Shown: positions 32,272 to 58,428, numbered from the stretch's first letter. The stretch: 64,000 bases of DNA from Candidatus Omnitrophota bacterium (GCA_043803685.1 JAZDJU010000037.1:91746-155745); one strand, 5' to 3'. The notes: generated by a model not told the origin, from the sequence alone. Translations and numbers: made by a program.

Positions 32272-33453
32272 CTAGTATTCGTTGTCGAAACTGTAACCAT
32301 ATTCAGAGGTAAGATACCCCTTCGCTTCATCTTCCGGAACCCCGACAAAATACTGCTCATCGGCCTCCAACTGCAGATAAAGGTCATCATCGTCCTGGAC
32401 GAGATCCCCAAATTCCGCTTTCAGATCGACCCAGATCTCACCACCCGCCAGCTTGGTATTATACTCCTGGTCCTCGGAATAAGAGTTCCTTATCCCTCCT
32501 CCCGGGATCGGCATGCCAATGACCGGTTCATCTTGCGTGTGCAGATAGAAATAATCCGCGTAATCCTTCCACCAAACCGCGTGCAGGGCCTCGTGACCCA
32601 GGATCGCCGCGGCCGCGTACTTGTTCCCTTTGTAAGTGTCCAGAAGATAGATCGCGCTGGTTCCATCGTCGTAAGACTCGTGACAACCAAGCGCCGTTTC
32701 GCATCCGACGGGCATGCCTCCCGCGGCAACGAAGGTGACCGGGATTTCATTGTCCTCAATAAACTGCGCCAGAGCTTTTCCAGTGGTCGCCCCGTCCGAA
32801 GTCAACGCCGCCTCTGATAATTGCAACATATCAATGACCGCTTGTTCATCCTCTGCATATCCCGTAAAGGCCGCTTTGCTGGCACTATCCTGAACGGCCG
32901 TAACGTCCGATGCCACCACCCTACCCCCGCCACCGCCACCGCTACTTCCGCTACTCCCCCCAGAACCACTGCCGGAGCCACCGCCAGAACCGCCGCCTCC
33001 CGAACCACCTCCTCCTCCGCCGCCACCACCGCCGGAACCACTGCCTCCTGAACCATCACTATAACCGGATCCCACAAAACCGTCTTTATTGATCGCGAGA
33101 TTCTCGAGCCAATTTTCCAGAAACCCAAGCGGGGTCGCGACCGCGAGAAAATTATCCTCGCCCTCTTCAAGGATCTTGTAGCTATAAAATAATCCCTTGA
33201 TCGAAAGACCGAGTACGGATTCGATCTCTGCCACATCTTCCGCCGCAACAAATTTTCCGGTCAAATTATGGCGAAGCACTTCGGCGGAACGAATGGCTCC
33301 GAGATTGGTGACCGCTTCAGCTTCTTTGGATTTTTCGAACTTTGTGAGAATGCGTGGAGTCACGATGGCGGCAAGCGACGCGATGATCGTGATCGCAATC
33401 AAGGCTTCAAGGAGCGTAAATCCTCGGGATTTATTGAGGGGCCGTTTTGTCAT
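32272..33453 (-). CDS. Prepilin-type N-terminal cleavage/methylation domain protein with Gly/Ser linker and HEXXH C-terminal domain
   Basis: KSRGFTLLEALIAITIIASLAAIV (G|FTLLE prepilin signature), about 45 aa of G/S, then ILGHEALHAV. Start set at MTKRP; alternatives lie upstream to 33528. Confidence 0.8.
   Translation of the reverse strand: MTKRPLNKSRGFTLLEALIAITIIASLAAIVTPRILTKFEKSKEAEAVTNLGAIRSAEVLRHNLTGKFVAAEDVAEIESVLGLSIKGLFYSYKILEEGEDNFLAVATPLGFLENWLENLAINKDGFVGSGYSDGSGGSGSGGGGGGGGGGSGGGGSGGGSGSGSGGSSGSSGGGGGGRVVASDVTAVQDSASKAAFTGYAEDEQAVIDMLQLSEAALTSDGATTGKALAQFIEDNEIPVTFVAAGGMPVGCETALGCHESYDDGTSAIYLLDTYKGNKYAAAAILGHEALHAVWWKDYADYFYLHTQDEPVIGMPIPGGGIRNSYSEDQEYNTKLAGGEIWVDLKAEFGDLVQDDDDLYLQLEADEQYFVGVPEDEAKGYLTSEYGYSFDNEY
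32915..33065. repeat. Low-complexity GGN/AGC codon tract encoding the Gly/Ser linker
   Basis: Runs of ccgcc/ccacc on the + strand. Confidence 0.85.
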
Positions 33454-34798
33454 TCTGGTTCCCTTGCATTTCATTCTCCAACAACTTTTTATTGCGGAGC
33501 GCCGGCTCAAGTTTGGGATCCAACTCAAGTGCGCGGTTCCATTCCATTAAGGCGTTATCGGCATCGTTCATCAAAGCATAAGCCAACCCGGCATTCGTGT
33601 GCGTTTTCGCGTCCAGGTCGTTGCGGGCAAGGATCTTCCGGAACACCTCCAGAGCGGTCTTCGGTTGGTCCATCTTCAGGTAAACCATTCCAAGACTGCT
33701 GAGAACAGCCGGATCGTCGGGTTTTTTTTCCGCCAATCGTCCGTACTGGGTGATCGCTTTCTGGAATTCCCCTCGCTCGGTAAAGACCTTTGCCAGGCCC
33801 TGCATCGCCCCTACAGACGCGGGATCCTTCGCTAGGGCTTCATTAAAAACCGCCTCGGCCTTGTCAAGCTCCTTCACATCAAGGTAGAGTCTCCCAAGAC
33901 CGATCTTCACATTCGCAACATCAGGATCGCTCCTCAAAGCTTTCTCGTATAAATTTTCGGCACCGCTAAAGTCCTTTCTTAAGCGCGAGATCTCCGCCAT
34001 GAGAAGATAGGCCCGCGGGACCGGGAAAGGCTTTTCGAGCAGGCCTGCGAGAAGCGCGGAAGCCCGATCGATCTCGCCGGCCTGGACATAAGCGGCAGCC
34101 GCATTGGAAACAGCGACGTCATCGTTCCTCTTGCCAAGCTCCTCAAAAATTTCCCCGGCACCGGAATAATCCCCTAGCATATAAAGACAATACGCCAAAC
34201 TTCTTTTCGCTTTAAAATCATCCGGTTTCAGGGTCATTACTTTTTGATAATAGACCGATGCTTCCCTGTAGTTCTTCAAACCCTCATAAAAATGCGCGAG
34301 ATTCAAAAGAATATCGGGCTTGTTGGGATTTCCCTCGAGCGCTCTGAGAAAATTCTCCTCAGCCTTCTTGGCATCCCCCAGAGAAGCGTAAACACTCCCC
34401 AGATTGGCATAGATGATGGGATTGATGGCGCTAGGCCCCAGAGCGCTCTCAAAAGCACCCGCGGCGTCCTCGAACTGGCCGTTCCCGTAAAGCTTGACCC
34501 CCTTGGAAAAAGAGGCCTGCTTCCCCTGGGCTACAGCAAGCTCCTCGGGCGACCCGCGCCAGATCATCCGGATATCGCTCTTGGGGATCTTCACCTTGCC
34601 GCCCGGTGCCTGGACGGTTACGAACCGCTCATCTTCTTTAAGGATCGTCGTCTCAATCGCGTTGCCATTCTTGAGCTGAATGATCTCGGCGCGCAGGAAA
34701 ATCGGAAGAAAAAATAAAGCGGGGAAAAGAAATAAAACGAGGAGAAAAATCAACTTTGCCGTCTTCCGTTCCAAATTCAAAGCCTCCATCAGGGGCAT
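33431..34798 (-). CDS. TPR-repeat protein with N-terminal signal/anchor
   Basis: 455 aa. Hydrophobic N-terminus, then about 10 TPR-like 34-mers (A..YY..A..L.P motifs). Confidence 0.8.
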   Translation of the reverse strand: MPLMEALNLERKTAKLIFLLVLFLFPALFFLPIFLRAEIIQLKNGNAIETTILKEDERFVTVQAPGGKVKIPKSDIRMIWRGSPEELAVAQGKQASFSKGVKLYGNGQFEDAAGAFESALGPSAINPIIYANLGSVYASLGDAKKAEENFLRALEGNPNKPDILLNLAHFYEGLKNYREASVYYQKVMTLKPDDFKAKRSLAYCLYMLGDYSGAGEIFEELGKRNDDVAVSNAAAAYVQAGEIDRASALLAGLLEKPFPVPRAYLLMAEISRLRKDFSGAENLYEKALRSDPDVANVKIGLGRLYLDVKELDKAEAVFNEALAKDPASVGAMQGLAKVFTERGEFQKAITQYGRLAEKKPDDPAVLSSLGMVYLKMDQPKTALEVFRKILARNDLDAKTHTNAGLAYALMNDADNALMEWNRALELDPKLEPALRNKKLLENEMQGNQNDKTAPQ

Positions 34799-38010: not shown

Positions 38011-38847
38011 TCAGGGTCGCGTCCAAAAATATTTATTGGAGACCGCAAGATAAAAGCATCGCACAAGCTCGTAAGGGAGGAACAGAGCGTAGACCCGGAT
38101 CTTCCCCAAGAGATCTTCGTTCTTTTGGATCATCCAATGACGGTTGCGAAAACACAAATATTGCCGGAATTTCCCTCCTGTATCGGAGCTGTTGCCGGCA
38201 TGACAACACGTCATGTCCGGACAGAATTGGGCTTGCCATCCCGCCCGACTCGCCCTCCAGGCAAGGTCCACATCCTCAACAAGAAAGAAAAAACGTTCGT
38301 CAAAATAGCCTGTTTTTTCCCGGATCGCGTTGAGCATGGCCCTTCGATAAAAAGCAGCCGCGGAACAAGGACCGATGATCTTTTTTCCCGCAAGCCCGGG
38401 TCCATCCTTGGGTTTTCCTTGATTCAGATCATGGAACCTGCGACAGGCCGACAAATGGATCCCTTGGGAATAGACCGTTTTGCCATCCGCGCTCAGAACA
38501 TTCGGCTGGATCATCCCGACATCCTCGGAAAATCCTTTCCGTATTCGCTCGAACTCCGCAAGAAAACCGTCTCCAAGCACCACGTCATTGTCCAGGGCCA
38601 GAACCCAATCCCCTGAAGAACCTTCAATCCCCTGATTCCTGGCCTTGCTAGCGCCGAAATTCTTCGGGTTTTCGATCAAGTTCACGCCGGGAAAGTGCGT
38701 CTTGATGATCTCGCGCGTTTGATCCCGGGAATCGTTGTCGACCACCACGATCTCGATGTCCCGAGCGTCTTGGCGCATTATAGAATCCAGGCATGCCCGG
38801 ATAGAAGCTTGGCTGTTGAAGGTGATCACTACGATGGAGAGTCGCAT
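38011..38847 (-). CDS. GT2-family glycosyltransferase
   Basis: [40 protein letters not shown] (DxD). Confidence 0.88.
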
Positions 38848-40202
38848 TGGCCGGCGAAAACTCTATGAAGGTTCACTTTGATGTTTTCCAGATCCTCGGC
38901 GCTGAGGTCCTGGGTCCTCACAATACATTTTCTGTTGCCGTCATAGTCCTCCCAGTTGTCGGAAACCAACCATCCCTTTTCCACGGCATCGTTAAAATAG
39001 ACCGTTCCGGGAAATGGCACGGCAAATGAAAACTGAACCGAGTCAGGCTCCACCGATCGCGCAAAATCAATCGTACTCTGGATCGTCTGTCTTGTTTCTC
39101 CTGGAAGACCAACGCAGAACGTCAAATGAACTTTAATCCCCAGGCGTTTGGAGATCCCGATCATGGAACGGGCTTTCTCTAGATCCAGATTCTTCCCGCA
39201 CGACCGTCGGACCTCTTCATCCGCTGATTCGATGCCATACTTGACGGCGTAGACACCCGCGCGGGACATAAGCTCCAACAGCGCTTCATCCATCCTATCC
39301 GCGCGGGTCATCGCTCCCCAAGGAACATTCAATTTTCGTCTGAGGATCTCCTCGCAAATATTGACAACGTGCTCGCGGTCCCCATTGAAAGTTTCGTCAT
39401 CAAAATAGACCGATTTAAAATTAAAATGCCGGATCAGGTGCTCCATTTCATCAACGACGTCCAAAAAATTCCGTTTCCTGTACCCGCTCCCTTTATAGAG
39501 CGTCTGAGGAAGAAGGCAAAAGGAACATCGAAACAAACAGCCGCGACTGGCCAGCATCTGAACGCTCGGGCCTGGCAGTCCTGCGAAACCATCGTTGTAC
39601 TTATAGATGAGAGGCGCCGTTCTCTTGGGCCATGGCAAAACATCCAGATCATTAATGCACCCCCGGCGATCGCTCACAAAGATCTGCTCCCCTGCGCGAT
39701 AAGCCAATCCGGCTACATCGTCCAGTCCATGGCCTCGCTCAAGAGCCTCCACCAACTCGACCGCCGAACGTTCATACTCTCCGATGATCACATAATCGAT
39801 GGTAGGGTGTTCCGTTAAGATCTTTGCCGCAAACTCACCGGCATGCGCCCCGCACAACCCGATATGGACATTCTTCATCGCTTGCCGAAGTGCCGCAATG
39901 ATCCTTATATCATTTTTGAATGACGGCGCAGAGGTCTCGATCAGAACAAGCCCCGGATCGAACTCCCGGATCCTTTCAAGACAAAGAGGCTCGCTGATCT
40001 GCTCAGCGATCGCATCGATCAGTTTTACGGATTTCCCTTCTTTTTCTAATAAGGCGGCGGTATAAGCGAGAAAAAACGGAAAGGGGATATAGAGAAGACG
40101 CCCGTCTACCGCAGGCTTCGAAGTGAACGGCCAACGGGATCCAGCCCTGACCCCCAAACGTCCATCCTTAAACCATGGAAGATTTACGAGGGCCGTCTTC
40201 AT
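38829..40202 (-). CDS. B12-binding-domain radical SAM protein
   Basis: MKTALVNLPW..., cobalamin-domain-like N-terminus, ASRGCLFRCSFC. Start set at MKTAL, 1 nt after the upstream stop. The track's N-terminal extension is an out-of-frame read of the neighbouring repeats. Confidence 0.88.
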   Translation of the reverse strand: MKTALVNLPWFKDGRLGVRAGSRWPFTSKPAVDGRLLYIPFPFFLAYTAALLEKEGKSVKLIDAIAEQISEPLCLERIREFDPGLVLIETSAPSFKNDIRIIAALRQAMKNVHIGLCGAHAGEFAAKILTEHPTIDYVIIGEYERSAVELVEALERGHGLDDVAGLAYRAGEQIFVSDRRGCINDLDVLPWPKRTAPLIYKYNDGFAGLPGPSVQMLASRGCLFRCSFCLLPQTLYKGSGYRKRNFLDVVDEMEHLIRHFNFKSVYFDDETFNGDREHVVNICEEILRRKLNVPWGAMTRADRMDEALLELMSRAGVYAVKYGIESADEEVRRSCGKNLDLEKARSMIGISKRLGIKVHLTFCVGLPGETRQTIQSTIDFARSVEPDSVQFSFAVPFPGTVYFNDAVEKGWLVSDNWEDYDGNRKCIVRTQDLSAEDLENIKVNLHRVFAGQCDSPS

Positions 40203-40203
40203 C

Positions 40204-40866
40204 TTACTTGTTGAGATCGAGATGATTCTGAATTCGCTCGAAGAACTCCTTGATCTGATGAATACCCTGACTGATGTCCTTGGAATCACAGCTGATCTGT
40301 TCCGACGCTTGATAGATACTCTCGAACTGGTCCGGCGGAACCAGCTTAAGTTTGATCTCTTCCAACTGATCAAGCAGAACAAGTCTTTGCCTGATCTCTC
40401 CCAGCTGATCGAGCGGAACAAGCTTTTGTTTGATCTCTTCCAACCGATCAAGCGGAACAAGCTTTTGTTTGATCTCTTCCAACCGATCAAGCGCTACGAG
40501 CTTTTGCTTGATCTCTTCCAACCGATCGAGCGCCACGAGCCTTTGCTTGATCTCTTCCAACCGATCGAGCGCTACGAGCTTTTGCTTGATCTCTGCTAAC
40601 CGATCGAGCTGAACAAGTTTTTGATTGACCTCCTCCATTTTTTGACCCTGATCAAACATCATTTGCGCGAGATTGCCAAAAACCCTGATAACAACCGCGC
40701 AAAGAGAGCTTCCCACCATGATGAGGAAGCCGCTCACGAGCGACTCATGCCCGTTCGCCTTAAAAAAGATCCAATACGCGCCGACGAGAACGCCCAGTGC
40801 GGCAATCGCCCATGCATAAAGGCCCAAAACAAATACCGTAGGAATTTTTTTAGTTTTCATCGACAT
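40204..40866 (-). CDS. Membrane-anchored protein with about 7-8 tandem 13-residue repeats (LVALDRLEEIKQK)
   Basis: Two N-terminal TM helices, then a periodic, predicted-helical repeat array. Overlaps both flanking genes' boundaries. Confidence 0.75.
   Translation of the reverse strand: MSMKTKKIPTVFVLGLYAWAIAALGVLVGAYWIFFKANGHESLVSGFLIMVGSSLCAVVIRVFGNLAQMMFDQGQKMEEVNQKLVQLDRLAEIKQKLVALDRLEEIKQRLVALDRLEEIKQKLVALDRLEEIKQKLVPLDRLEEIKQKLVPLDQLGEIRQRLVLLDQLEEIKLKLVPPDQFESIYQASEQISCDSKDISQGIHQIKEFFERIQNHLDLNK
40338..40622. repeat. 39 bp in-frame tandem repeat, about 7 copies
   Basis: Unit cttttgtttgatctcttccaaccgatcaagcggaacaag with point variants. Confidence 0.85.
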
Positions 40867-43800
40867 TGTCCTTTTTGTTGATGTTCCGTTCGACTATAGC
40901 TTGAGAACTCTTGATCCGATCGATCAGATCGGACGATCGCATCAGATCCAACGATCGAAACTTTCCATCATCTAACCATGCTTTGATCGTTTGAGTAAGT
41001 TTCAAAAAAAACGGGTTAAGATGCGGATGCTCCCTTTCCAGCAACCCGATCCAGTCAGGACGTTCCCTGACAAGACCCATCAGCTTTTCCAGCAAAACAT
41101 CGTCGTGCGTGTTATAAACGGAGATCAGGAGATGTTTATAGAGCAATCGTTGAAACTCCGTCTCCCCAAACCTGTCGATGATCCAGCGGTTAAGCGCAAG
41201 GATCAAAGCAAATAAATTCAGGGAAAAGCTTTCCTTCGGAGAAAGCAGGCTGGATAGGGCGTTTCTCTTCCCGGCATAACGATAAAAGAACGTCAGATCG
41301 ATCAAGGCCAGCCAGGGTGACAACCTGGGCTCCTTCTTCGCGCCACTCACATCCGTATCGCGAAACATAAAATGTTCCAGATCCATTAAAGAGTGATGTA
41401 TCGCCAAAAAGAAGTCCAGATAAAGGAGTGCTTCCCGATGGTTCTCCAGATCCTCATCAAGATAGCGGTTGGCTAAGCCCACATTGTCCTTCATTTTCAG
41501 GGAAAAATTTTCCGGATCTAAAAAGAACTTTTGTTCATCATAATATTCGCGACGCCAGTTCCAGAAGGTTTTAAAAAGCGAGAAAATATCATCTCGCTTT
41601 AAGTGATGCGCGATCGCCCCGGCTTCATATCCCAGCACTTGTCCCGTTCCCATAAGACGCCGGCTCAGATTCACGTCCTCATAATTGTTCTTGAGCGTCT
41701 CATCATAAAAGCCTACATCCAGAACTACCTGACGACGCAATACGGTGTTGGCGCCAAACAAGAACTCAGGGACTTTGTTTTCTGGTTCCCAATACTGTTT
41801 CATGTGAACTGCGCGCCACTCGTCGAATACGGAAGAAGTCTTGCTCTCCAGCAACTTGCCTCCCATACCGCAAATGTTCGGGTCGTCAAACCTGCTCATC
41901 AAACGCGAAAGCCAGTCATGATCCGCAACGCAATCCGCATCCAGAGACGCGACAAACTCTGTGTTCATATTCTTAAGAGCCGTATTTCTGGCAGCAGCGA
42001 GACCCTTGTTAGTCTCATGGCGGAACAATCGCACGCCATAAGAGGACGCAATGTCACAAGTTCTGTCCGTCGACCCGTCATCCACCACGGCCACCTCTAC
42101 CACAGGATACGTTTGCCTGAAAACAGCCTCCAGACAGGCCGAGAGTGTTTTTTCTGCATTGTAGCAGGGGATATACAACCCCACTCGTTTTAGCGGCAGA
42201 GCCATGCCCGAGAAAACCCATTTGCCGTCTCGATTGATCGCCACGCCGTTGCAACCCTCGAGGGATCCGCCGGACTGAAGACGGAAAAGCACATTCAATA
42301 ATATTTGCTCGCCTTCTCCGGTGATAATAAAGTCCGCGAATTTCTGCAACCCATGCGGCAATAGAAGGTCACGATCATCCTGGGTTAAATTGTAACAACA
42401 GGTTCCTCCCAGAAGAATCTTCACCTCAGGATATCTGCTCTTTACTCTCTTGATGATCTCCAGAGTAAATAATGCGGAGGTTTTTTGGACTGAAAAACAG
42501 ATCACATCGGGAGTTACCGCAAGGATCCGATCCACACATTGCTCATAGACCTGTTCCGTGATGAACGGTAATTGATAAAAGCTGTCCTCTGAACACCACC
42601 GGTCTCTGTTATGGCTATCCCAATAAGTCTTATGATCGCCAGCCACCTCATGATAGACCATGATGTTTAAGTCAAGAACGCTCGCCTCACACCCATTGGC
42701 GTTGAGATAGGCCAGCCCCAAGGAAGGCCTTTCAACGCCGAAAGGACAAGGGCATTGGACGAGAGCTATTTTCATTATGCCGGGCCTCGCATTCTCGAGC
42801 CCTGCGTCAACAATGGAACTGCTGAAAAGTTTTCTCTTTTGCGAATAGTTGCTCTCAAGGTCGAAGTCGTCCCGATAAGAACACCACTGCAGACAAGGTT
42901 TGCTGCATTGGCGTATCAACTTTCGAAGATCCCTCGCGTTCGCCGAATACCAGAGATCTTTCAGGCTGTCTTTTTTCACATCCCCGAACGTCGCCTCATG
43001 GCTATTCTGGTTCACGCAAAAATAAAGCTTCCCCTCCTGAACCACTTGAATGCGATTGTATCCGGCATAACAAGGCCTCCCGGTGATCTTTGTCCGCCCC
43101 TGAAAATACTTTTTGATCGATTCCAGATTTTCGATCGCATTGGCAACAAGATCAAAATTGCACTCGTTCATTTTCTTAAATTGAATGATAGCATCGATGG
43201 AATCCTCCAGGAGCTTCAGCCTTGCTGGCGGTATACAGACCCCCGAATTCATTTCCGCCTTTTCCTGGTCCGTATTATCTCCCACCACGGGTTGAAAGAT
43301 CACGCTGGATATCTTTAAGCTTCGGCATAATTCGATGACATCCATAAGTTCGCCAGCATTTTGATCCATGATCGTACAGACGCAACAGATCGAGGGCGAA
43401 TACCTCCCTCTTTTCTCTTTCATTGCATTGATCAACTTCACATTGGCGATGATCTTTTCCAGATAATTCTGGCCCCGGATCTTCGAAAAAGATTCCTCCG
43501 TCGCCGCATCGATCGACACGCTCAAGTTGCTCAGATTCGCTTCGAACATTTTTTCAACGATCTTTTCGGACATGATCGTGCCGTTCGTTACCACCGTAAT
43601 GGAGGAGAATCCGCAATCCGCCGCAAAAGAGACCATCTCGAATAACCGCGGTTCCAGAAAAGGCTCCCCCCCGATCAAGATCAGCGCAGGGACCTTCATT
43701 TCCGCGCCTTCTTTAATAAGTTTCTTGATCGTCGAAATATCCAGATCCACCGGGCGATTCTGGGCCTTGAAAGACTCCTCCCTTTCGTGCATGCTGCACA

Positions 43801-43936
43801 TCGTGCACCTTAAATTACAACGGAAGGTGAAATTGATCTGAAGGGCATCTGCGGGAACAAGGGGATAATCGATCTTCCGGGAAAGCCGGAAAAATGAATT
43901 CCTTTCAAGCAATCGTTCAAACCTCTCCTTATCCAT
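40850..43936 (-). CDS. Multidomain fusion: radical SAM/SPASM + cobalamin-binding-like domain (no SAM core) + GT2 glycosyltransferase + helical C-terminal domain
   Basis: FRCNLRCTMCSMHE and CYAGYN...CSKPCLQWCSYR (aa 1-375). MKIALVQCPCPFG...ITGEGE (about aa 388-575). YIPCYNAEKTL, VVDDGSTDRT, LDADCV (about aa 582-800). 1028 aa in total. Confidence 0.85.
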   Translation of the reverse strand: MDKERFERLLERNSFFRLSRKIDYPLVPADALQINFTFRCNLRCTMCSMHEREESFKAQNRPVDLDISTIKKLIKEGAEMKVPALILIGGEPFLEPRLFEMVSFAADCGFSSITVVTNGTIMSEKIVEKMFEANLSNLSVSIDAATEESFSKIRGQNYLEKIIANVKLINAMKEKRGRYSPSICCVCTIMDQNAGELMDVIELCRSLKISSVIFQPVVGDNTDQEKAEMNSGVCIPPARLKLLEDSIDAIIQFKKMNECNFDLVANAIENLESIKKYFQGRTKITGRPCYAGYNRIQVVQEGKLYFCVNQNSHEATFGDVKKDSLKDLWYSANARDLRKLIRQCSKPCLQWCSYRDDFDLESNYSQKRKLFSSSIVDAGLENARPGIMKIALVQCPCPFGVERPSLGLAYLNANGCEASVLDLNIMVYHEVAGDHKTYWDSHNRDRWCSEDSFYQLPFITEQVYEQCVDRILAVTPDVICFSVQKTSALFTLEIIKRVKSRYPEVKILLGGTCCYNLTQDDRDLLLPHGLQKFADFIITGEGEQILLNVLFRLQSGGSLEGCNGVAINRDGKWVFSGMALPLKRVGLYIPCYNAEKTLSACLEAVFRQTYPVVEVAVVDDGSTDRTCDIASSYGVRLFRHETNKGLAAARNTALKNMNTEFVASLDADCVADHDWLSRLMSRFDDPNICGMGGKLLESKTSSVFDEWRAVHMKQYWEPENKVPEFLFGANTVLRRQVVLDVGFYDETLKNNYEDVNLSRRLMGTGQVLGYEAGAIAHHLKRDDIFSLFKTFWNWRREYYDEQKFFLDPENFSLKMKDNVGLANRYLDEDLENHREALLYLDFFLAIHHSLMDLEHFMFRDTDVSGAKKEPRLSPWLALIDLTFFYRYAGKRNALSSLLSPKESFSLNLFALILALNRWIIDRFGETEFQRLLYKHLLISVYNTHDDVLLEKLMGLVRERPDWIGLLEREHPHLNPFFLKLTQTIKAWLDDGKFRSLDLMRSSDLIDRIKSSQAIVERNINKKDNVDEN

Positions 43937-44142: not shown

Positions 44143-45480
44143 TCATTTTTCTCTAAAAACGGGTCCGGCAACTCCGTTCTTTGAGCTTCGCCCAACACGG
44201 CCCCTTGAGATCATTTGTTCGAATCCTCTAAGACTCTCTGAGATCCTCGCGATCTCAAGGTCCAGGCTCTCATCTGCAGGATCATGAACCAGGCCCAGCA
44301 TCCGCCCGAAGCGGGCCTTACACTTCTTCCAAAGGATCAAGGCCCTGTAGCTTTTGAACATTCCGCACAATCTTCGCAAATACTCTTTTTTCTCTCGCTC
44401 ATCAGCAATGCCCGCAACAAATCTGTCACATGCGGGATAAATATCGGAAAGTTCTTCCATGTGGACACAACTCTGAAGACAAGGGGTCCGGCACTGGACA
44501 ACTTTTTTTCGTATCGCTCCGGCCCGCTTTGAGAACCAATATTGCTTCAGGGTGCCCGTTTTAAGCTCTCCATACATTCCCTGACACGTCCAAAGTCCCC
44601 CGGTAAAAGAAATGACGATCCTCGCGAAACCTTCGTAGCACTTGAGGTCCTTGTTCAAAAGGGTTCCGGAAAAATAATCCGGGATCAACTTCAAAACCTT
44701 TTCGTTCACATGGACGCTCAAATCCGAAGATGTTCTTTTTAATTCCAGAACCTGGCCAATCACTGCTCGCAGTTTTTCAAGATTTCTCTCCGAAACCCAC
44801 AGCTCATTTTTTACCCGATCCTGCATTTCTGTATTATCAGAAAGCATCGGTTGTATCACGATAATGTTACATTTCTTACTGCGCGCCACCTCAATCATGG
44901 GCACAATGTCGTCAATATTACAATCCATAATGGTGAAATTGATCCCGACCGTAGGAAGCGTGCGGTCCCCACGGATTCGATTGATCATATCGATGGCACC
45001 CACCGCCCGCTTGAATGCTCCCTCCCCACGCACAAAGTCATGCGCCTCCTCCCGACCATCGATCGAAATAGTGATATGAGTCAATCCCGCATTAACAAGT
45101 GTCCTCCCGATAGCTTCGGTGAGCATAAGTCCGTTACTGATGAGATCAACCATTTTAATCTTTTTCAAAACGGCATAGTGAACCAGCTCCTCAATATCAC
45201 GCCGCAAAAGAGGTTCTCCTCCGGAAAATATCAGATGATCCACGCCTAGATCCGCGATCTGATCAATGATCCTCTTGCATTGTTCAAGGGATAGTTCCTC
45301 TTCGCTCCGCGCCCCTTCCCCGGGGATACTGCACATTTTGCACTTCAAATTGCACCGATTCGTTAGCGAAAAATAAACATGCTCGGGGGGACACAAAGGA
45401 CGCCCGACCACTCTGGAGAAATAGAACCCCAGATTCCTCTTGAGCTTATTCCAGCTATAATCCGATGGATTATTTTCCAT
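44143..45480 (-). CDS. Radical SAM/SPASM-domain protein
   Basis: LTNRCNLKCKMCS, GGEPLL. C-terminal CYEGF...WTCQG...CRTPCLQSC. Confidence 0.88.
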   Translation of the reverse strand: MENNPSDYSWNKLKRNLGFYFSRVVGRPLCPPEHVYFSLTNRCNLKCKMCSIPGEGARSEEELSLEQCKRIIDQIADLGVDHLIFSGGEPLLRRDIEELVHYAVLKKIKMVDLISNGLMLTEAIGRTLVNAGLTHITISIDGREEAHDFVRGEGAFKRAVGAIDMINRIRGDRTLPTVGINFTIMDCNIDDIVPMIEVARSKKCNIIVIQPMLSDNTEMQDRVKNELWVSERNLEKLRAVIGQVLELKRTSSDLSVHVNEKVLKLIPDYFSGTLLNKDLKCYEGFARIVISFTGGLWTCQGMYGELKTGTLKQYWFSKRAGAIRKKVVQCRTPCLQSCVHMEELSDIYPACDRFVAGIADEREKKEYLRRLCGMFKSYRALILWKKCKARFGRMLGLVHDPADESLDLEIARISESLRGFEQMISRGRVGRSSKNGVAGPVFREK

Positions 45481-46516
45481 AACTATTGCGTCCTATGGCC
45501 CATAGGGATCTTGATCTCTCCCGAGAATAGCAAGACTGCAAACAGAGATCCCTACATCGCTTAACAGACTTTCTAAGCTTCGCGGCTTCTCGGGACGCCC
45601 AACATTCGCGAAGCGACTTCTCTGAAAGATCCCCGCAGATGCCATGGCACGTATAAACCAAAGGAGTTCCCGTATCTCCGATACAAACAAACAGGGTCTT
45701 ATAGCCTCCAAAGCATTTCCAGTCTGAACGGGACAAACTCCGCCGGTAATATTTCTTTAACAATCTCAGATCCGGTTCCTCATACAGCTGGAGGTGCCGT
45801 GCTTTGAAATGTTTGATCTGTTCTATCGTCTCGTCTAAGACATGCCACCTCTCGTCAGGGATCCAAAACTTACTGACGCGACGATCCGGTGTGTTCGCAT
45901 TGTCCTTAAGAAGAGGCTGAAAGTTGATAGCATCCACGTTCAGGGCATCCGCATACGCCATTAACTGAGGCAGATCTTCCAGGTTGTGGTCCATGACCGT
46001 ACAAGCGATCCCGACCGAAAGAGGATTTTTCGAGATCTTGCGGAGGGCGTCCACCTTTTTAATGCCTTCGATAGTTTTCTTAAAGCTGCCTTTTCCACGA
46101 ACGAGATCATTAGCCTCTTCAAGCCCGTCCAACGAGAAATGGATGTGACTCAACCCCGATGAGACAATCGCTTGCGCCAACCCTTCATCCACGAGAGTTC
46201 CGTTCGTGGTCAGGATCGATCTAAGCCCCCTGTCCTTGCAATGACCACAAATTTCAAAAAAATCCTTCCTCAATAAAGGCTCTCCGCCGGTCAGCACGGC
46301 CTCTTGAATCCCCATGTTGGCGGCTTGATCGAGAATATCGAAAATCGTCGCCAGGGACAGTCGATTACTGCCATCCCCCCGGATGGAACACATCGCACAC
46401 TTCAAATTACAGGCATCCGTCATCGGGATCTGGATCACTTCCGGAGAGACTAAAGAGTGATCGAAAAACCTAGAAGCCCAGAACAGAAAATCCTTACCCC
46501 TCTCCTTCAGAGACAT
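45470..46516 (-). CDS. Radical SAM/SPASM-domain protein
   Basis: MTDACNLKCAMCS, TGGEPLL. C-terminal WKCFGGY...YTCHG...CRDLCLQSC. Confidence 0.88.
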   Translation of the reverse strand: MSLKERGKDFLFWASRFFDHSLVSPEVIQIPMTDACNLKCAMCSIRGDGSNRLSLATIFDILDQAANMGIQEAVLTGGEPLLRKDFFEICGHCKDRGLRSILTTNGTLVDEGLAQAIVSSGLSHIHFSLDGLEEANDLVRGKGSFKKTIEGIKKVDALRKISKNPLSVGIACTVMDHNLEDLPQLMAYADALNVDAINFQPLLKDNANTPDRRVSKFWIPDERWHVLDETIEQIKHFKARHLQLYEEPDLRLLKKYYRRSLSRSDWKCFGGYKTLFVCIGDTGTPLVYTCHGICGDLSEKSLRECWASREAAKLRKSVKRCRDLCLQSCYSRERSRSLWAIGRNSYGK

Positions 46517-46739: not shown

Positions 46740-47858
46740 TTATTTAAAAAGCCTCGTTTTCTGCCAATGGCTGGTCACAAGGTCGAAGTCGTCCCGCCAA
46801 GAACACCTCTGCATACAGGGTTTCCGGCATTGGCGTATCAACTTGCGCAGTTCCCTCGCCTTCTCCGAATACCAGAGATCTTTCAAACTGTCATTTTTCA
46901 CATCCCCGAACGTTGCCTCATGGCTATTCTGGTCCACGCAAAAATAAAGCTTTCCCTCCTGAACCACTTGAATGCGATTGTACCCGGAATAACAAGGCTT
47001 TCTGTTGATCTTTGTCCGTCCCTGAAAATACTTTTTGATCGTCTCCAGATTTTCGATCGTATTGATGATAAAATCGAAATTGTGCTCGTTCATTTTTTTA
47101 AATTGAATGATCGCGTCAATGGAATCCTCCAACAGCTTCAGCCTTGCTGGCGGTATGCGAACCCCCGAATTTATTTCCGCCTTTTCCTGATCCGTGTTAT
47201 CTCCCACCACCGGCTGAAAAGCCACATGAGCTATCTTCAAACTGCGGCATAATTCGATCACATCCATCAGCTCCTCGATATTCTGGTCCATGATCGTACA
47301 GGAGCAACAGATCAAGGGGGAATGGCTCCCGATTCTTTCTTTCACTTTGTTGATCAGCTTCACATTGGCGATGATCTTGTTCAGATAGGCCTGTCCTCTG
47401 ATCCTGGAAAATGTTTCTTCACTGGCCCCATCGATCGACAAGGTTAAATTGCTCCCTGTCGCTTCGGACATTTTCTCCACGATCTTTTCGGACATGATCG
47501 TGCCGTTCGTTACCACGATAATAGAGGAGAATCCGCAATCCACCGCAAAAGAGACCATCTCGAACAACCGCGGATCCAGAAAAGGCTCCCCCCCGATCAA
47601 GAGAAGCGAAGGGATCTTCATCTCCGCGCCCTCTTTGATAAGTTTCTTGATCGTCGAAATATCCAGATCGACCGGGCGATTCTGGGCCTTGAAAGACTCC
47701 TCCCTTTCGTGCATGTTACACATCGTGCACCTTAAATTACAACGGAAGGTGAAATTGATCTGAAGAGTATCCGGGGGAACCAGGGGATAATCTTTCTTAC
47801 GCGAAAGCCGGAACAATACATTCCTGTCAAGCAATCGCTGAAGCTTCTTGTTATCCAT
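46740..47858 (-). CDS. Radical SAM/SPASM-domain protein (paralogue of the N-terminal third of 40850..43936)
   Basis: FRCNLRCTMCNMHE, CYSGYN...CRKPCMQRCSWR. Start set at MDNKKLQ, overlapping the wzt-like stop by 8 nt. Confidence 0.88.
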   Translation of the reverse strand: MDNKKLQRLLDRNVLFRLSRKKDYPLVPPDTLQINFTFRCNLRCTMCNMHEREESFKAQNRPVDLDISTIKKLIKEGAEMKIPSLLLIGGEPFLDPRLFEMVSFAVDCGFSSIIVVTNGTIMSEKIVEKMSEATGSNLTLSIDGASEETFSRIRGQAYLNKIIANVKLINKVKERIGSHSPLICCSCTIMDQNIEELMDVIELCRSLKIAHVAFQPVVGDNTDQEKAEINSGVRIPPARLKLLEDSIDAIIQFKKMNEHNFDFIINTIENLETIKKYFQGRTKINRKPCYSGYNRIQVVQEGKLYFCVDQNSHEATFGDVKNDSLKDLWYSEKARELRKLIRQCRKPCMQRCSWRDDFDLVTSHWQKTRLFK

Positions 47859-47912
47859 TTTTCCTTTCTGAGCCTTTTGTATCGCCGCTGGATTCCTGGA
47901 TAACGATTCTCG
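46744..47912. repeat. Segmental duplication, copy B
   Basis: See copy A. Spans the whole SPASM gene plus the last ~55 nt of the ABC ATPase gene. Confidence 0.8.
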
Positions 47913-50607
47913 CCATAAGATCGATCTTTTCCTCCGGGCGAAGCTTTCCCGGATTCCTTTCAAGATACTGCAAAACTCTGCCGCGATGATAAAGATCCGA
48001 GTTCACAATATTCAGGGTCTTGGTAATGCTAGGCCCGCATGGCCCTATGCGGACTTCCGGCAATCCCGCTGCCGATACAGCCACCCATCCGTCAGGAACC
48101 CCTTCTTTATTGTCTGTAGAGTAAACAACCTCCCAATCATCGTCAATATTCGCTTTGAACGGGGGGAGGATGCCGCTCACGCCATGCGCCCGCCACGCAT
48201 CATACCTTTCTGAAAGCATGATATTGGTCTGTATACGATCCATTTCTATATCCTCGTTGACGATCATTGAGGCGCGAAGTTCGACCGTATGGCTGTCGGT
48301 GATCTTGATCTCCCAGGATTGAATCAAGGGTAACTGAAGCCAGTTTCCGTGAGCCATGAGCGTGTGATCATCGACATTTTCGACCCTCCAGAACGCCGAA
48401 GAAACCGAGGAATGCCAACGCCCCTGACAACGCAAGGCGGTATAGAAACCGAGTTCTTTGGTTAACTCTTTCCCTTTCCAATACAAACGCCCTTGCCCTC
48501 GGTCGAAACAAAAACTCAATTCACCGCGATCGATCTTGCTCACGACTTTACTTTCAACCGTGGCCCTTTTCTTTCCAAATGAGATCTCGGCATCAAAGCA
48601 AGATCGCTCTCCCGGGAGAAGCAGCTCCTGGCCTTCGCCTCCGATCCTGTAAATACGTATTTCACGCGATCGGGAAAAAATGTCGGCGTTGAATATTTTC
48701 ACAAAGCTATCATCAGCCTGGGCGACCTTCATGACCGCGGCCGGGACGCCCTCGGCCCTGCTCGCCACTCCGAGCTCAGGCTGCCGGATACACTTCTGAA
48801 GAACATCCACTTCATGCTCCAGAAACTCTTCCGGGAAATCATGCTCCACGGCCCCATAAAACCAGGACGTATATTCCTTGCTGAGCGTCCAATTCAGCAT
48901 CTGTTGTTCCACGCAAACTTCTTCACTGACCCGCAAGAAAACGTTGAGGCGAAAAGCGTCTTCTCCGACCGCCTCGATCTCCCAGATCTGGATGAACGGC
49001 GCATCCGGCCAGATCACCTGAGCGATCATTTTATGGGGCCCGGCCTTTTCGGGCTTCCATTTTGCCAAAGTCGAAAAGTATCTTCGCCCGCCCGCATGGA
49101 CCGATGACGCGATGGACTGGATCGCGGACGGACCAAACTTTTTACAGGTGATATCGCATCGCCCATGTTCAAAAACCAGCTTTGTGGTGTTGAGCTCTAT
49201 CGCATAACCCGCCTGCAGATCATTCAAATATTGTTCCGGGTCGGAAACGTCCAGGAGGATCCTGCCTGAAAACCAATACGCTTGGTCTGCACGCGAAACA
49301 TTACTATGCTGCCTACGGAGGATCGTGTATTGAAGGACTCTGCAATCGGCCAGAGAGTCCGAATTAAAGACCTGCCCCTGGGCTCCCAACGAAGAGTCCC
49401 GGGATTCAAAGATCAGCCCGGGCAATCCCGCGTCCGCCGCCTCTTGGGGCATCACACCCATACATTCATGAGCGGCTCTCTTTTCAGTGAGCGGTTGCCA
49501 GTCATGACTGTTTTCATCAATGACCGGAAAATGACCTTTCTCAGAAGGAGTGAACCAGTCGGCATATTCTTTTTGAAGTAAAAGATTAAGATAGCCCTCC
49601 TGAATGTCCAAGGGCTCGTCCGCCTGGATCTCCACATCCCATTTCACTTCAGAGTTCTCATGGATCTCCATCTTCCAGATCTGGGTCAGTCCCAGTTGGA
49701 AGAGCCTCCCCCGGGCCACGAACCGTGTCTCGCTCTCTTTTTGAACTTCCCAATCCGCCTGAAAAGAATGATAGCTCTTCCCGTCGACAAAAAAACGGGT
49801 GTATCCTCCGGCATTCGAAGTCACCGGCTTATCTTTCCAGTTAAGGAACAGCCTTCCGTTATTAAAAATAACGGAAAAAGGTCCTTGCGTCAGGATCGCG
49901 ATCGTATCTTTGGCTCCGATCATCTGCGCATAAAAAGGAATGACCTTCTCTGCCAGGTCATCTTTGATGACCCTTCCTTCCCTGATGAAAAGAACCCGCT
50001 TGCAAAGCTTTCGGAGCATATGCATATCATGCGTCACGCAAACGATCGTCGCGCCGGAATCCCTGAGTTCAAAGATCCTTTTAATGCATTTCCTTTGAAA
50101 ATACTCATCCCCCACGGCCAGAATATCATCAATGACCAATATCTCAGGCTCCACATGGATCGCGGCGGAAAAGGCCAGGCGGACAAACATGCCCTGGGAA
50201 TAACACTTCACCGGCGCATCAATAAATTTCCCGATATCGGCAAAGCTGATGATCTTTTCGCAGGCGACCTCGAGCTTCGCGGGGTCCATTCCCGATAGAC
50301 TCAGATTCAAGTGGATGTTATCTCTCCCGGTCAGCTCCGGCTGAAAGCCAGCTCCCATCTCCAAAAGCCCGGCCACTCTGCCGTCCACCTTGACTTCGCC
50401 CCGATCCGGTTTTAAGAGCCCCGCAATGATCTTCAGGATCGTCGTTTTTCCGGACCCATTTTCCCCGATGATCCCTATCGTTTCGGAAGGCTCGATCTTG
50501 AAGCTGATCCCCTTTAAAGCCCAGTAATTCTCCCAGGAAACTTTGCCGGCGAGCACGAACTTGATCCGGTACATTTCCCAAACATCATGAAAATTTATGA
50601 TAGCCAT
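47851..50607 (-). CDS. Wzt/TagH-type polysaccharide-export ABC ATPase with a C-terminal extension of about 670 aa made of three repeated modules
   Basis: GENGSGKTT, YSQGMFVRLAFS, LVIDDILAVGDEYFQRKC. The C-terminus carries three copies of a module with Q(I/S)W(K/E)(M/I)E ... (K/E)(E/R)Y..W ... (F/L)P. Confidence 0.85.
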   Translation of the reverse strand: MAIINFHDVWEMYRIKFVLAGKVSWENYWALKGISFKIEPSETIGIIGENGSGKTTILKIIAGLLKPDRGEVKVDGRVAGLLEMGAGFQPELTGRDNIHLNLSLSGMDPAKLEVACEKIISFADIGKFIDAPVKCYSQGMFVRLAFSAAIHVEPEILVIDDILAVGDEYFQRKCIKRIFELRDSGATIVCVTHDMHMLRKLCKRVLFIREGRVIKDDLAEKVIPFYAQMIGAKDTIAILTQGPFSVIFNNGRLFLNWKDKPVTSNAGGYTRFFVDGKSYHSFQADWEVQKESETRFVARGRLFQLGLTQIWKMEIHENSEVKWDVEIQADEPLDIQEGYLNLLLQKEYADWFTPSEKGHFPVIDENSHDWQPLTEKRAAHECMGVMPQEAADAGLPGLIFESRDSSLGAQGQVFNSDSLADCRVLQYTILRRQHSNVSRADQAYWFSGRILLDVSDPEQYLNDLQAGYAIELNTTKLVFEHGRCDITCKKFGPSAIQSIASSVHAGGRRYFSTLAKWKPEKAGPHKMIAQVIWPDAPFIQIWEIEAVGEDAFRLNVFLRVSEEVCVEQQMLNWTLSKEYTSWFYGAVEHDFPEEFLEHEVDVLQKCIRQPELGVASRAEGVPAAVMKVAQADDSFVKIFNADIFSRSREIRIYRIGGEGQELLLPGERSCFDAEISFGKKRATVESKVVSKIDRGELSFCFDRGQGRLYWKGKELTKELGFYTALRCQGRWHSSVSSAFWRVENVDDHTLMAHGNWLQLPLIQSWEIKITDSHTVELRASMIVNEDIEMDRIQTNIMLSERYDAWRAHGVSGILPPFKANIDDDWEVVYSTDNKEGVPDGWVAVSAAGLPEVRIGPCGPSITKTLNIVNSDLYHRGRVLQYLERNPGKLRPEEKIDLMARIVIQESSGDTKGSERKNG

Positions 50608-50655: not shown

Positions 50656-52086
50656 TTAACGGCTAAAAGCCTCTTCAGATACGGGAATCCCTAAAATATC
50701 CCGAAGGATCACCTTGGCGATATTCCCGGCCAGGATCGTATTGCCCAAATCGGTGCAGTGACCAAAGTCCGCAGCAAACCTGTCCCTGAAGATCTCTTCG
50801 AATCGGTATTTCTTGAGCGCATCCTTAAATAGCTTTTCATTATCGACAAAACTGACGTTTTGACCGTGGTCCGCAGAAAAAATCCTCCTTAAGGGTTCTA
50901 TGTCCCGCATAGGATACTGCACGCAAACAAGACGTATCCCGTGTTCATCGAGCAGTTTCTTTATCTTACGATAATTTTCCACTGTCATCGATTCGTAACC
51001 TTGAGGAGCCAGGGCATGGCCCTGAGCAAGATAATCATCGCTCAGCTTGGATTTCCCCAAAGCGCGGTAAACATAAGCCAGGCCAAAATAGGGTCTATAA
51101 TCCGACTGATGGCTAAGCTCAATGGATTCTTTATAATTCGCTATAGCTTCCTCGTACCGGCCCTGTGCCGCAGCTATTTCTCCAGAATAGTAACTGATCC
51201 ATCCGGCGTGGCAGTGGCTTCTGAGAACCTTCAGCAAGGATTCCGCTTCGACATTTTTATGTACAGTGTTCAACTGACCCAGCAAATATCCCGCATACGG
51301 ATTCTCTTCCGGACATGCCGTGAATATTTTCTTGAACTTCTCGACCATTGCTTGGAGCATTGCTTCCTGCTCCTTGGGCTTGCATTGAAACATCCACCTG
51401 AAAAATGCGTCCGTATTCAAGGGATTGAGCGTGACAGCCTGACAGAATGTGGATCTGGCCTCATGCTCCTTCCCCTGAGCCTGCAACCGCATGCCAAGCT
51501 TTAGATAATAAACATCATCTCTGGACGCAGCGACAGGCGCTTCAGATCGAGGCTTACCCATAACCATGCGTTTTATTTCCTCAAACTTGGCCTGAATGTG
51601 CGCGCAAAGTAACTGCATGAGCCTATGCGTTTTAAAAGACTGGGCAAAACTTCGGTTGCAGGTGGCAAATCCGGCGGGCATATGCTTGGCACCCGCATCA
51701 TTAATGCCGATCATGGCCACCACCATATCGGGCTTGTATTTCCTGATATTGCTTTCCATTTTCTCGAAAATAACATCGGTATTGGTCGCGATCAGACCTT
51801 CATCGGTCACACTAAATCGCGTTTGGGTCTGACGGGCATTCAGTATCTTTTCAAGGAACCGTGGGTATTGCGCCTGAGTCGTCGACTCTCCAACGCACAG
51901 GATCCGATAGGAACCCCCGGTTTTCAGGGTGGCCCAATTTTTATATTGCTGCACAGCCCTGATGAAAAAACCCGATGCCTGGAGGCCCATCTCAAGCATA
52001 GCGAGAGCAAGCAACACTCCGAACAATACCAGCGCCACTCTTTGCCCGAAAGAGCTCGCTTTAGAAATTTTTTGCTTCTTTTTCAC
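50656..52086 (-). CDS. Membrane-anchored SGNH/GDSL-like hydrolase with inserted TPR region
   Basis: ILCVGESTT (block I), MIGINDAG (block III), DFGHCT (block V DxxH). TPR-like helices lie between blocks III and V. Confidence 0.7.
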   Translation of the reverse strand: MKKKQKISKASSFGQRVALVLFGVLLALAMLEMGLQASGFFIRAVQQYKNWATLKTGGSYRILCVGESTTQAQYPRFLEKILNARQTQTRFSVTDEGLIATNTDVIFEKMESNIRKYKPDMVVAMIGINDAGAKHMPAGFATCNRSFAQSFKTHRLMQLLCAHIQAKFEEIKRMVMGKPRSEAPVAASRDDVYYLKLGMRLQAQGKEHEARSTFCQAVTLNPLNTDAFFRWMFQCKPKEQEAMLQAMVEKFKKIFTACPEENPYAGYLLGQLNTVHKNVEAESLLKVLRSHCHAGWISYYSGEIAAAQGRYEEAIANYKESIELSHQSDYRPYFGLAYVYRALGKSKLSDDYLAQGHALAPQGYESMTVENYRKIKKLLDEHGIRLVCVQYPMRDIEPLRRIFSADHGQNVSFVDNEKLFKDALKKYRFEEIFRDRFAADFGHCTDLGNTILAGNIAKVILRDILGIPVSEEAFSR

Positions 52087-52120
52087 AAAATCGTCCCTTA
52101 GAATAAAGAGCGTCCGGGAC

Positions 52121-58239: not shown

Positions 58240-58428
58240 AGTTTTACGCATCAGCACATGATGAGCGGATACAAATAACCCCTATCAAATAAATTGGTTC
58301 GATTAAGAGGCTCGTGTCCCGACGCCGAGATCCTATCCACACCCCGGGTCTAGGAGCTTCTCATTTTTTGAATATGCGTCTTCTCTGGCCTTAGCGCATT
58401 CGGCAAGGCAACCCTTCAAAGACGCCCT

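Follow-up and report, generated by a model that had tools for sequence, protein, structure and literature searches.

The stretch of DNA considered here, 64,000 nucleotides (nt) from a Candidatus Omnitrophota bacterium (GCA_043803685.1, JAZDJU010000037.1:91746-155745) and referred to below as the window, carries on its minus strand a gene in which a radical S-adenosylmethionine (radical-SAM) module, a cobalamin (B12)-binding-like domain and a family 2 glycosyltransferase (GT2) are joined in a single open reading frame (ORF). Read together with its relatives, this fusion appears to be a lineage-specific remodelling of a recurrent, uncharacterised radical-SAM/GT2 partnership, and not a unique designed four-part enzyme. 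The gene and its parts, in the order of translation, are the following (aa, amino acids; S' and S are SPASM-type radical-SAM units, B2 is a class-B radical-SAM enzyme, GT2C a transferase family and P0002 the closest homolog, all described below):

40850-43936, minus strand: the fusion ORF, 1028 aa, uninterrupted, with an ATG start
42824-43936, minus strand: module S', aa 1-371, a radical-SAM core (C40/C44/C47, GGEP at 89) with a SPASM/twitch-like domain
42776-42823, minus strand: linker of 16 aa (48 nt), SSSIVDAGLENARPGI, former intergenic DNA
42200-42775, minus strand: cobalamin-binding-like domain, orphan, aa 388-579; its ortholog is the N-terminal domain of B2
42197-42202 (42199/42200), minus strand: scar of an in-frame deletion at the aa 579/580 junction, standing in place of P0002 residues 198-494
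41537-42199, minus strand: GT2 (GT-A) catalytic domain, aa 580-800, with DDGSTD at 619, DAD at 666 and YED at 752
40850-41536, minus strand: C-terminal helical domain, aa 801-1028, family-specific to GT2C

The locus had been described beforehand, from the nucleotide sequence alone, as one ORF with four parts, and both the Pfam matches and the motif positions agree with this original prediction. Specifically, the families called at gathering score are Radical_SAM (PF04055) at aa 34-172 (77.1 bits against a cut-off of 29.5), SPASM (PF13186) at aa 289-346 (29.8 against 21.5), B12-binding (PF02310) at aa 462-548 (34.1 against 32.1, the match being limited to the C-terminal two thirds of the model) and Glycos_transf_2 (PF00535) at aa 589-737 (116.4 against 23.3), and aa ~800-1028 have no Pfam match above gathering score. 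The motifs CNLRCTMC, GGEP, MKIALVQ and ITGEGE start at aa 40, 89, 388 and 538, and the DDGSTD and DAD motifs named for the GT2 domain were indeed found in it, at 619 and 666. The junctions, previously placed at about 42775-42811 and at 42190, are near the actual linker and scar; the peptides that span them in the fused product are ...LFSSSIVDAGLENAR and ...WVFSGMALPLK. The protein is 100% identical to NCBI MFH0984770.1, which comes from a 233.5-kb contig of a Candidatus Omnitrophota metagenome-assembled genome (MAG) and is annotated 'MAG: glycosyltransferase [Candidatus Omnitrophota bacterium]'. Against the named radical-SAM/SPASM equivalogs of NCBIfam (W-cofactor maturase, NirJ, AhbD, PqqE, MftC, anSME-type and others) it scores below every cut-off, the best equivalog being TIGR04317 (115 bits, cut-off 380).

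The closest homolog, P0002, is a protein of 943 aa encoded on a Logan ERR15087771 contig (locus L001). Its residues 1-197 align with window aa 387-579 at 73% identity and its residues 495-943 with window aa 580-1028 at 77% identity, and the intervening 297 residues, which hold the radical-SAM core CVMRCVFC (SRGCVMRCVFC... in P0002), have no counterpart in the window protein. Locus L001 and the window share synteny on either side of the gene (76-92% aa identity), the order in L001 being YdjC, two radical-SAM genes, GDSL/TPR, an ABC ATPase of ~920 aa, S (372 aa), B (470 aa), P0002 and a small repeat protein. P0002 is thus an orthologous gene in a syntenic island, followed by the same repeat protein with two transmembrane helices, but it keeps the 297-aa core and is without the N-terminal SPASM-type module, S being in L001 a separate gene two positions upstream. 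At locus L005, B2 (467 aa) lies 12 nt upstream of a separate GT2C gene (441 aa); the N-terminal half of P0002 shares 75% identity with this B2, and window aa 580-1028 share 68% with this GT2C. At locus L003, B2 and GT2C are likewise separate genes. From the states of these three loci and of the window, the polarity runs from separate B2 and GT2C genes, through a B2-GT2C fusion (L001), to an in-frame loss of the B2 core (window).

Scanning metagenome contigs with the junction-spanning aa 300-700 returned seven loci, and scanning genome contigs with aa 388-1028 returned no more than one distant Lachnospiraceae GT2. One candidate for a fusion of S with a B12 domain, L009 (query residues 1-251 matched), was rejected, as it consists of two genes: a stop ends the S homolog, and the B12 match lies beyond it.

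The orphan domain had been taken for a paralog of the N-termini of the B12-domain enzymes at 59502 and 61143, lacking any CxxxCxxC core behind it, and both statements hold: aa 388-577 are 37% identical to the N-terminus of the protein at 59502-60995 (E 3e-29) and 34% to that of the protein at 61143-62555 (E 1e-33), and the only CxxxCxxC of the fusion is at aa 40, with none C-terminal to the B12-like domain. A class-B enzyme requires a radical-SAM core of its own directly after the B12 domain, and the fusion has none there. The domain is no designed module: a class-B radical-SAM enzyme lost 297 aa in frame, and this is what was left of it. The scar is outside repeated DNA. Microhomology at the edges of the deletion (CCGTC on both sides in L001, ~5-6 nt) was considered as a clue to mechanism and set aside as too short and too diverged.

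The remnant lacks 4 aa of helix 1, is substituted at the conserved GGP and GFS positions, retains the SxL and GG fingerprints, and scores 34 bits against the Pfam B12 model, compared with 51 bits for P0002. Modelled alone with AlphaFold2 (11 sequences), it gives a confident Rossmann-like domain, with a mean predicted local distance difference test (pLDDT) of 87.9; in the model of aa 388-1028, for which only five sequences cover the B12 part, that part is below 50. Foldseek places the isolated remnant closest, among PDB entries, to the cobalamin domains of TokK, TsrM, CysS and OxsB (template-modelling score about 0.6, probability 1.0). These models suggest a folded vestige that would now serve mainly as a spacer, and that may retain residual cobalamin binding.

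A homolog search with the B12 domain only returned two proteins (at L006 and L007), both of them ORFs of split genes and neither an orphan domain beside a GT2. In these two loci, which come from different samples (L006 3048-4465 and L007 1310-2148), the B2 ortholog begins as a B12-only ORF of 169 or 197 aa, followed in L006 by an ORF with the radical-SAM core and in L007, where the contig ends, by an ORF of 82 aa that has no annotation. The break in L006 (apparently also that in L007) coincides with the domain boundary where the window deletion begins, which shows the boundary between B12 domain and core to be a natural break point.

The N-terminal module has a different source, for which the following features matter:

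46740-47858, minus strand: stand-alone paralog S, 372 aa from an internal ATG, syntenic with S of L001, L003 and L006
42837-43989, minus strand: copy 2 of a duplicated segment of 1153 nt, at 86% identity to 46759-47911
45470-46516 and 44143-45480, minus strand: SPASM-type radical-SAM genes X and Y, which occupy the slot of gene B in relatives

S' and paralog S are 81% identical in aa and 85.5% in nt. Since 53 nt of the ABC ATPase gene that lies upstream of S, taken from its 3′ end, are part of the duplicated segment, a whole S segment was copied. The C-terminus of paralog S (...LFK*) falls exactly at the start of the fusion linker; beyond F371 the two copies can be aligned for ~25 nt, and in S' substitutions and indels past this residue remove the TAA and two downstream in-frame TGAs. 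Accordingly, the 5′ part of the linker resembles the sequence just past the stop of paralog S, and its last third matches the region upstream of the P0002 start, with a conserved GAGG 9 nt before the ATG (M388). The N-terminal unit is thus a stop-loss fusion of a recent local duplicate of S. The window has no ortholog of gene B (the 470-aa B12 radical-SAM enzyme found in relatives such as L001), and the local net change is two class-B cores lost and three SPASM-type units gained. Members of the S family are fused to methyltransferases too (P0003, P0004).

Within S', the cysteines C40/C44/C47 (C-x3-C-x2-C) are invariant across 13 family members, and the auxiliary domain has five family-conserved cysteines, C289-x17-C307 and C344-x3-C348-x3-C352. 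The canonical SPASM domain binds two auxiliary [4Fe-4S] clusters through a seven-cysteine motif, CX9-15GX4C ... CX2CX5CX3C ... C, which S' lacks. Having five conserved cysteines rather than seven, the auxiliary domain is probably reduced and twitch-like, with one auxiliary cluster. The earlier description of S' as a complete radical-SAM/SPASM unit is consequently right as far as both PF04055 and PF13186 are above their cut-offs, but it overstates the auxiliary domain.

The C-terminal part of the fusion belongs to a larger group. A homolog search with aa 580-1028 gave 552 matches at E<=1e-20; among the best 120 of these, most are 425-447 aa long (outliers of 506 and 321 aa), identities are 43-68%, and the matches cover 69-100% of the query (at least 88% for all but one). 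Where the source names an organism, it is Omnitrophota or Patescibacteria. The DDGSTD, DAD and ED (753-754) residues are near-invariant in this family and present in the fusion, and the tail has near-invariant polar residues of its own (e.g. K814, D817, N818, R824, D829, Y839-L-D841, H847-H848 and D852). In the AlphaFold2 model of aa 580-1028 (pLDDT >90), the GT-A domain is packed on the helical domain. Foldseek with the model of aa 388-1028 gives GT-A matches at probability 1.0 (including a Leptospira glycosyltransferase, WrtF, TarS, TarP and K4CP), all confined to the GT-A part, with no analogue of the helical tail in the PDB; no transmembrane segment is predicted in the tail. GT2C is a large family of ~435-aa GT2 proteins with an integral helical C-terminal domain, nearly all of the close relatives being stand-alone, and the '~200 aa of unassigned helical sequence' previously counted as a separate part dissolves into a conserved region of ~230 aa within it. 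The search used here is word-indexed: with the aa 580-1028 query it left P0001 (100%) and P0002 (77%) unlisted although both are in the collection, and with the full-length query it gave only 9 proteins at E<=1e-10, so that absence from it is weak evidence.

On the whole, it is fairly probable that the fusion is a genuine single gene of a surface-glycan island of low guanine-cytosine (GC) content, that it arose in three events, and that GT2C, S' and the spacer have the roles outlined here. In the first event, B2 and the adjacent ~435-aa GT2C gene fused, a state kept in L001 as P0002. In the second, the 297 aa with the CxxxCxxC core of B2 were deleted in frame in the window lineage, leaving the cobalamin-binding domain. 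In the third, a 1.15-kb duplicate of S landed upstream, lost its stop and came to be read through 48 nt into the old B2 start. The outcome is an exchange of the radical-SAM partner tied to the GT2, from a class-B to a SPASM/twitch type. The comparisons show the anatomy, the succession of these events and the intactness of the catalytic motifs, and the functions are inferred from them. GT2C would be a cytoplasmic Leloir-type GT-A enzyme, using a nucleoside diphosphate-sugar donor and a growing glycan or lipid-linked acceptor, and the glycan would later be exported by a Wzt-type ABC system. With a 5′-deoxyadenosyl radical and a single auxiliary Fe-S cluster, S' may modify that same sugar, or else the nucleotide-activated donor of it, through an oxidation, epimerisation, dehydration or rearrangement initiated by hydrogen abstraction.

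Rates of evolution differ between the parts of the gene. For S', the ratio of non-synonymous to synonymous divergence (dN/dS, omega) is 0.11 against S of L001 and 0.24 against paralog S, and S' has 21 unique substitutions where S has 34. Omega is 0.11 for the GT2 domain (0.11-0.15 over comparisons) and 0.18 for the helical tail, and neither GT2 domain nor tail shows a rate asymmetry against L001. S', the GT2 domain and the helical tail are thus under purifying selection. The B12 domain has 28 unique changes in the window against 8 in L001 (p=0.0012), that is, it has evolved ~3.5 times faster than its ortholog; the evolution of this remnant is relaxed but not neutral. All 3084 coding nt are free of stops and both junctions are in frame, despite a synonymous divergence (dS) of ~0.4-0.7 since the events. 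That the junctions are in frame and 3 kb of frame stay open after such divergence argues both against a dead gene and against an artefact of assembly.

Several points weigh against a genuine, fully functional fusion with the proposed roles. The architecture has no second instance in a library of 1.84 billion representative proteins or in the JGI metagenome scan; the protein is alone in its own 90% identity cluster and known from one contig of one MAG; and its exact 1028-aa sequence is absent from the Logan/ENA/JGI contig index, which means that there is no independent assembly of it. None of its modules reaches an NCBIfam equivalog, the scores being far below the cut-offs, and no ABC-2 permease (Wzm) was found among the 22 minus-strand island ORFs scanned (32.3-64 kb). 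The branch-specific omega of the B12 domain is ~0.44 in the window and 0.09 in L001, which is a rough estimate since dS to the outgroup L005 is saturated. The faster evolution of the remnant and its 4-aa deletion show that this part of the polypeptide has given up its former role, and the gene may be partly decaying. Finally, what the substrate is, which sugar is involved and which radical chemistry takes place are wholly matters of inference.

Whether the ORF yields one product is a separate matter. Re-initiation at M388 (42775) could add a 641-aa B12-GT2C protein, in which case the link of the transferase to S' would be partial. The GAGG before M388 is conserved with the start region of P0002, a real gene start there, but the use of Shine-Dalgarno sequences in the island is weak and variable, and with no stop upstream, ribosomes on S' must continue into the rest; such dual products are unlikely, if conceivable.

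It is also doubtful, and somewhat on the improbable side of unlikely, that the fusion is an in-frame relic, with deletion and read-through as neutral accidents, a fused protein that is non-functional or of which only GT2C matters, and the radical chemistry left to S, X and Y. Such a relic would account for the singleton architecture and for the fast evolution of the B12 remnant, with its 4-aa deletion and its lost GGP/GFS residues; moreover, an intact paralog S lies 3.9 kb away, and a GTG codon (V585) stands at the position where stand-alone GT2C proteins begin. The conservation of the gene argues otherwise: besides the in-frame junctions and the long open frame, S' has evolved more slowly than S and kept all eight conserved cysteines and GGEP, the GT2 domain is strongly constrained, and even the remnant, at an omega of ~0.44, stays below 1.

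SPASM enzymes are often peptide maturases, which raises the prospect of a RiPP (ribosomally synthesised, post-translationally modified peptide) system, in which the SPASM modules would modify a peptide (e.g. the downstream repeat protein) and the GT2 would glycosylate it. Mycofactocin, in which the SPASM radical-SAM protein MftC and the GT2 protein MftF belong to one pathway, is the nearest model, and MftF (TIGR03965) is indeed the best NCBIfam match of the GT2 domain; a repeat-bearing protein of 220 aa is, in addition, translationally coupled downstream. However, MftC and MftF are separate proteins with a peptide-derived substrate, the match to MftF amounts to 123.1 bits against a cut-off of 280, which does not place the domain in that family, and the neighbouring radical-SAM genes score 68-100 against 265 for MftC. 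The layout of the 220-aa protein, with two transmembrane helices and a repeat that is variable and coiled-coil-like, is not that of a leader and a core, and the genes of the island include those of a Wzt/TagH-type ATPase, a YdjC protein, an epimerase and three GT2s. No family of RiPP-recognition elements turned up in incidental Pfam scans of the S family, a dedicated search not having been run. A RiPP-type system is accordingly quite improbable.

An assembly or consensus artefact, that is, a strain chimera or collapsed repeat in place of a genome with separate S', B2 and GT2C genes, is very improbable. MAGs built from short reads can be chimeric, a stretch of 1.15 kb is duplicated here, and the protein comes from a single contig with no exact counterpart in the independent contig index. 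Nevertheless, the copies, at 86% identity, are too divergent to collapse, the scar does not lie in repeated DNA (~5-6 nt are shared at its edges in L001), and the reading frame is kept at both joins. The loss of the stop took several substitutions and indels and is thus not a single-base error, synteny with L001 is continuous on both flanks, and the lineage-specific divergence of the remnant is consistent with real evolutionary time after the event.

Equally improbable is a permuted cobalamin-dependent enzyme (radical SAM first, B12 second), the product of domain replacement and physically tied to the transferase, in which the B12 remnant would still bind cobalamin and serve S' in cis, the sugar being C-methylated or rearranged during transfer; the TokK/TsrM-like predicted fold, the SxL...GG fingerprints and an omega below 1 are compatible with it. 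From the class-B enzymes TokK, TsrM, CysS and OxsB the fusion differs in lacking, beside the B12 domain, the catalytic barrel by which that class is defined, its only core being N-terminal and of SPASM/twitch lineage.

A genuine fusion, as preferred here, has many partial parallels. The architecture was said to have no described precedent, which agrees with the literature, where no characterised radical-SAM/glycosyltransferase fusion was found (nor a characterised precedent for Omnitrophota with radical SAM or for Wzt with radical SAM), but not with the sequence record. In a survey of fusions, based on the 150 best representatives from 1.84 billion proteins, the following arrangements were seen: (i) GT2C-radical-SAM/SPASM (P0011, 880 aa, five contigs), (ii) GT2-radical-SAM/SPASM (P0052 and P0106), (iii) B12-radical-SAM-GT2 (P0047 and P0097), (iv) the order GT2-...-B12-radical-SAM, in about nine proteins, and (v) radical-SAM/SPASM followed by four GT2 domains (P0082). 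Furthermore, P0112 (MDD5019261.1), a B12-radical-SAM-GT2-radical-SAM/SPASM protein of 1161 aa from three independent Omnitrophota assemblies, carries all four of the Pfam families named for the fusion. Of these proteins, P0011, P0052, P0082 and P0112 share with it PF04055, PF13186 and PF00535, with or without PF02310, on one chain, as well as a location in islands rich in radical-SAM genes, several of them in Omnitrophota; they differ in domain order and in that each of their B12 domains has its own following core, and they are likewise uncharacterised. None of the surveyed fusions has a B12 domain left without a core, placed between SPASM module and GT2 or elsewhere, and the domain order of the window protein recurs in none of them. 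A preprint on the phylum counts radical SAM among the sugar-metabolism modules of the giant multi-enzyme proteins of Omnitrophota.

Because the GT2C family is fused to radical-SAM domains in several other orders on unrelated contigs, and because its stand-alone members occur among radical-SAM genes, these comparisons support the view that radical enzyme and transferase belong to one pathway. The original prediction went further, in arguing from the physical coupling to radical chemistry on the very sugar or acceptor handled by the GT2; the one-pathway part of this argument is strengthened by the recurrent fusions and neighbours.

A logic of attaching a sugar and then remodelling it is known from two systems. 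In the Hpn system, a glycosyltransferase (HpnI) attaches N-acetylglucosamine, a YdjC-family enzyme (HpnK) deacetylates it and a B12 radical-SAM enzyme (HpnJ) remodels the attached sugar, and in archaeal calditol synthase (Cds) an attached sugar is likewise remodelled by a radical-SAM enzyme (PMC13459092). The island resembles these in holding GT2, HpnJ-like and HpnK-like genes side by side, but the Hpn enzymes are not fused to one another and have a hopanoid as substrate, and the radical-SAM module of the fusion is SPASM-type, not HpnJ-type. No hopanoid genes turned up in the Pfam scans of the window, in which none were specifically searched for.

The window and loci L001, L005 and L003 can thus be read as a stepwise record of multi-enzyme remodelling within one syntenic island. 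The recurrent coupling of GT2C with radical-SAM enzymes is Rosetta-stone evidence for a large body of uncharacterised radical-SAM enzymes, in Omnitrophota and neighbouring candidate phyla, whose indicated targets are glycans and not peptides or cofactors. To our knowledge, the sugar chemistry so far characterised for radical-SAM enzymes comes from only a few cases, in natural products and lipids, and for this reason islands with eleven radical-SAM genes beside a Wzt-type ATPase are candidates for new modifications of cell-surface sugars.

The surroundings of the fusion fall into two parts. The first 32 kb of the window (1-32 kb) hold housekeeping genes (pnp, ribF, truB, infB, nusA, dnaX and an lpxL-like lipid A acyltransferase) at a GC content of ~0.55; from ~33 kb to the window end the GC content is ~0.48, every sizeable gene is on the minus strand, and the island continues past the window end. 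It includes eleven radical-SAM genes (the fusion, four further B12-domain and six further SPASM-type genes), two further GT2s (three in total), a YdjC protein, a NAD-dependent epimerase/dehydratase and GDSL/TPR proteins, and appears from its gene content to be an ABC-transporter-type glycan island unusually rich in radical-SAM enzymes. Two of its other products bear on the fusion:

47851-50607, minus strand: ABC ATPase, 918 aa, with a Wzt/TagH-like nucleotide-binding domain in its N-terminal 230 aa
40204-40866, minus strand: protein of 220 aa in which two N-terminal transmembrane helices are predicted, with a tandemly repeated 13-aa unit, LDRLEEIKQKLVA

The N-terminal 230 aa of the ABC ATPase match the PDB chains 8DKU, 7K2T and 6AN5/6OIH at E ~1e-62, and TarH/TagH at 1e-50. 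These chains were deposited as 'ABC transporter', and we take them to be the O-antigen exporter subunit Wzt of Aquifex aeolicus. The ~680 further residues of the ATPase have no Pfam match; this extension is 76% conserved in L001 (923 aa), and L003 has a protein of similar size (908 aa).

The start of the 220-aa protein overlaps the stop codon of the fusion. Its homologs (78-220 aa where complete) are found at L001 12816-13148, L005 3841-4230, L003 12938-13270 and L004 18049-18621. The window, L001 and L005 have this gene after that of GT2C, in L003 and L004 it lies close by, and the number of repeats varies. Its product may be a membrane partner of the transferase, a coiled coil of variable length that might act as a ruler or an anchor. 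In the DNA, the repeat is a 39-nt unit at 40309-40659.

Elsewhere in the island, a contiguous trio at 55968-59193 (minus strand) consists of a GT2 (58429-59193), an HpnJ-like B12 radical-SAM enzyme and an HpnK-like YdjC protein, the members scoring below the family cut-offs (HpnJ, 187 bits against 578; HpnK, 159 against 233). A second HpnJ-like gene (38829-40172, minus strand; 259 bits against 578) lies beside another GT2 in the stretch 38011-40172. At 50656-53656 (minus strand), two adjacent paralogous proteins of 511 and 476 aa combine a GDSL/SGNH-like hydrolase with TPR; they are ~36% identical via L001, which has only one, so that the window island carries a second local duplication. At the boundary between housekeeping genes and island (32272-33528, minus strand), a protein of 418 aa has a prepilin-type N-terminal methylation motif.

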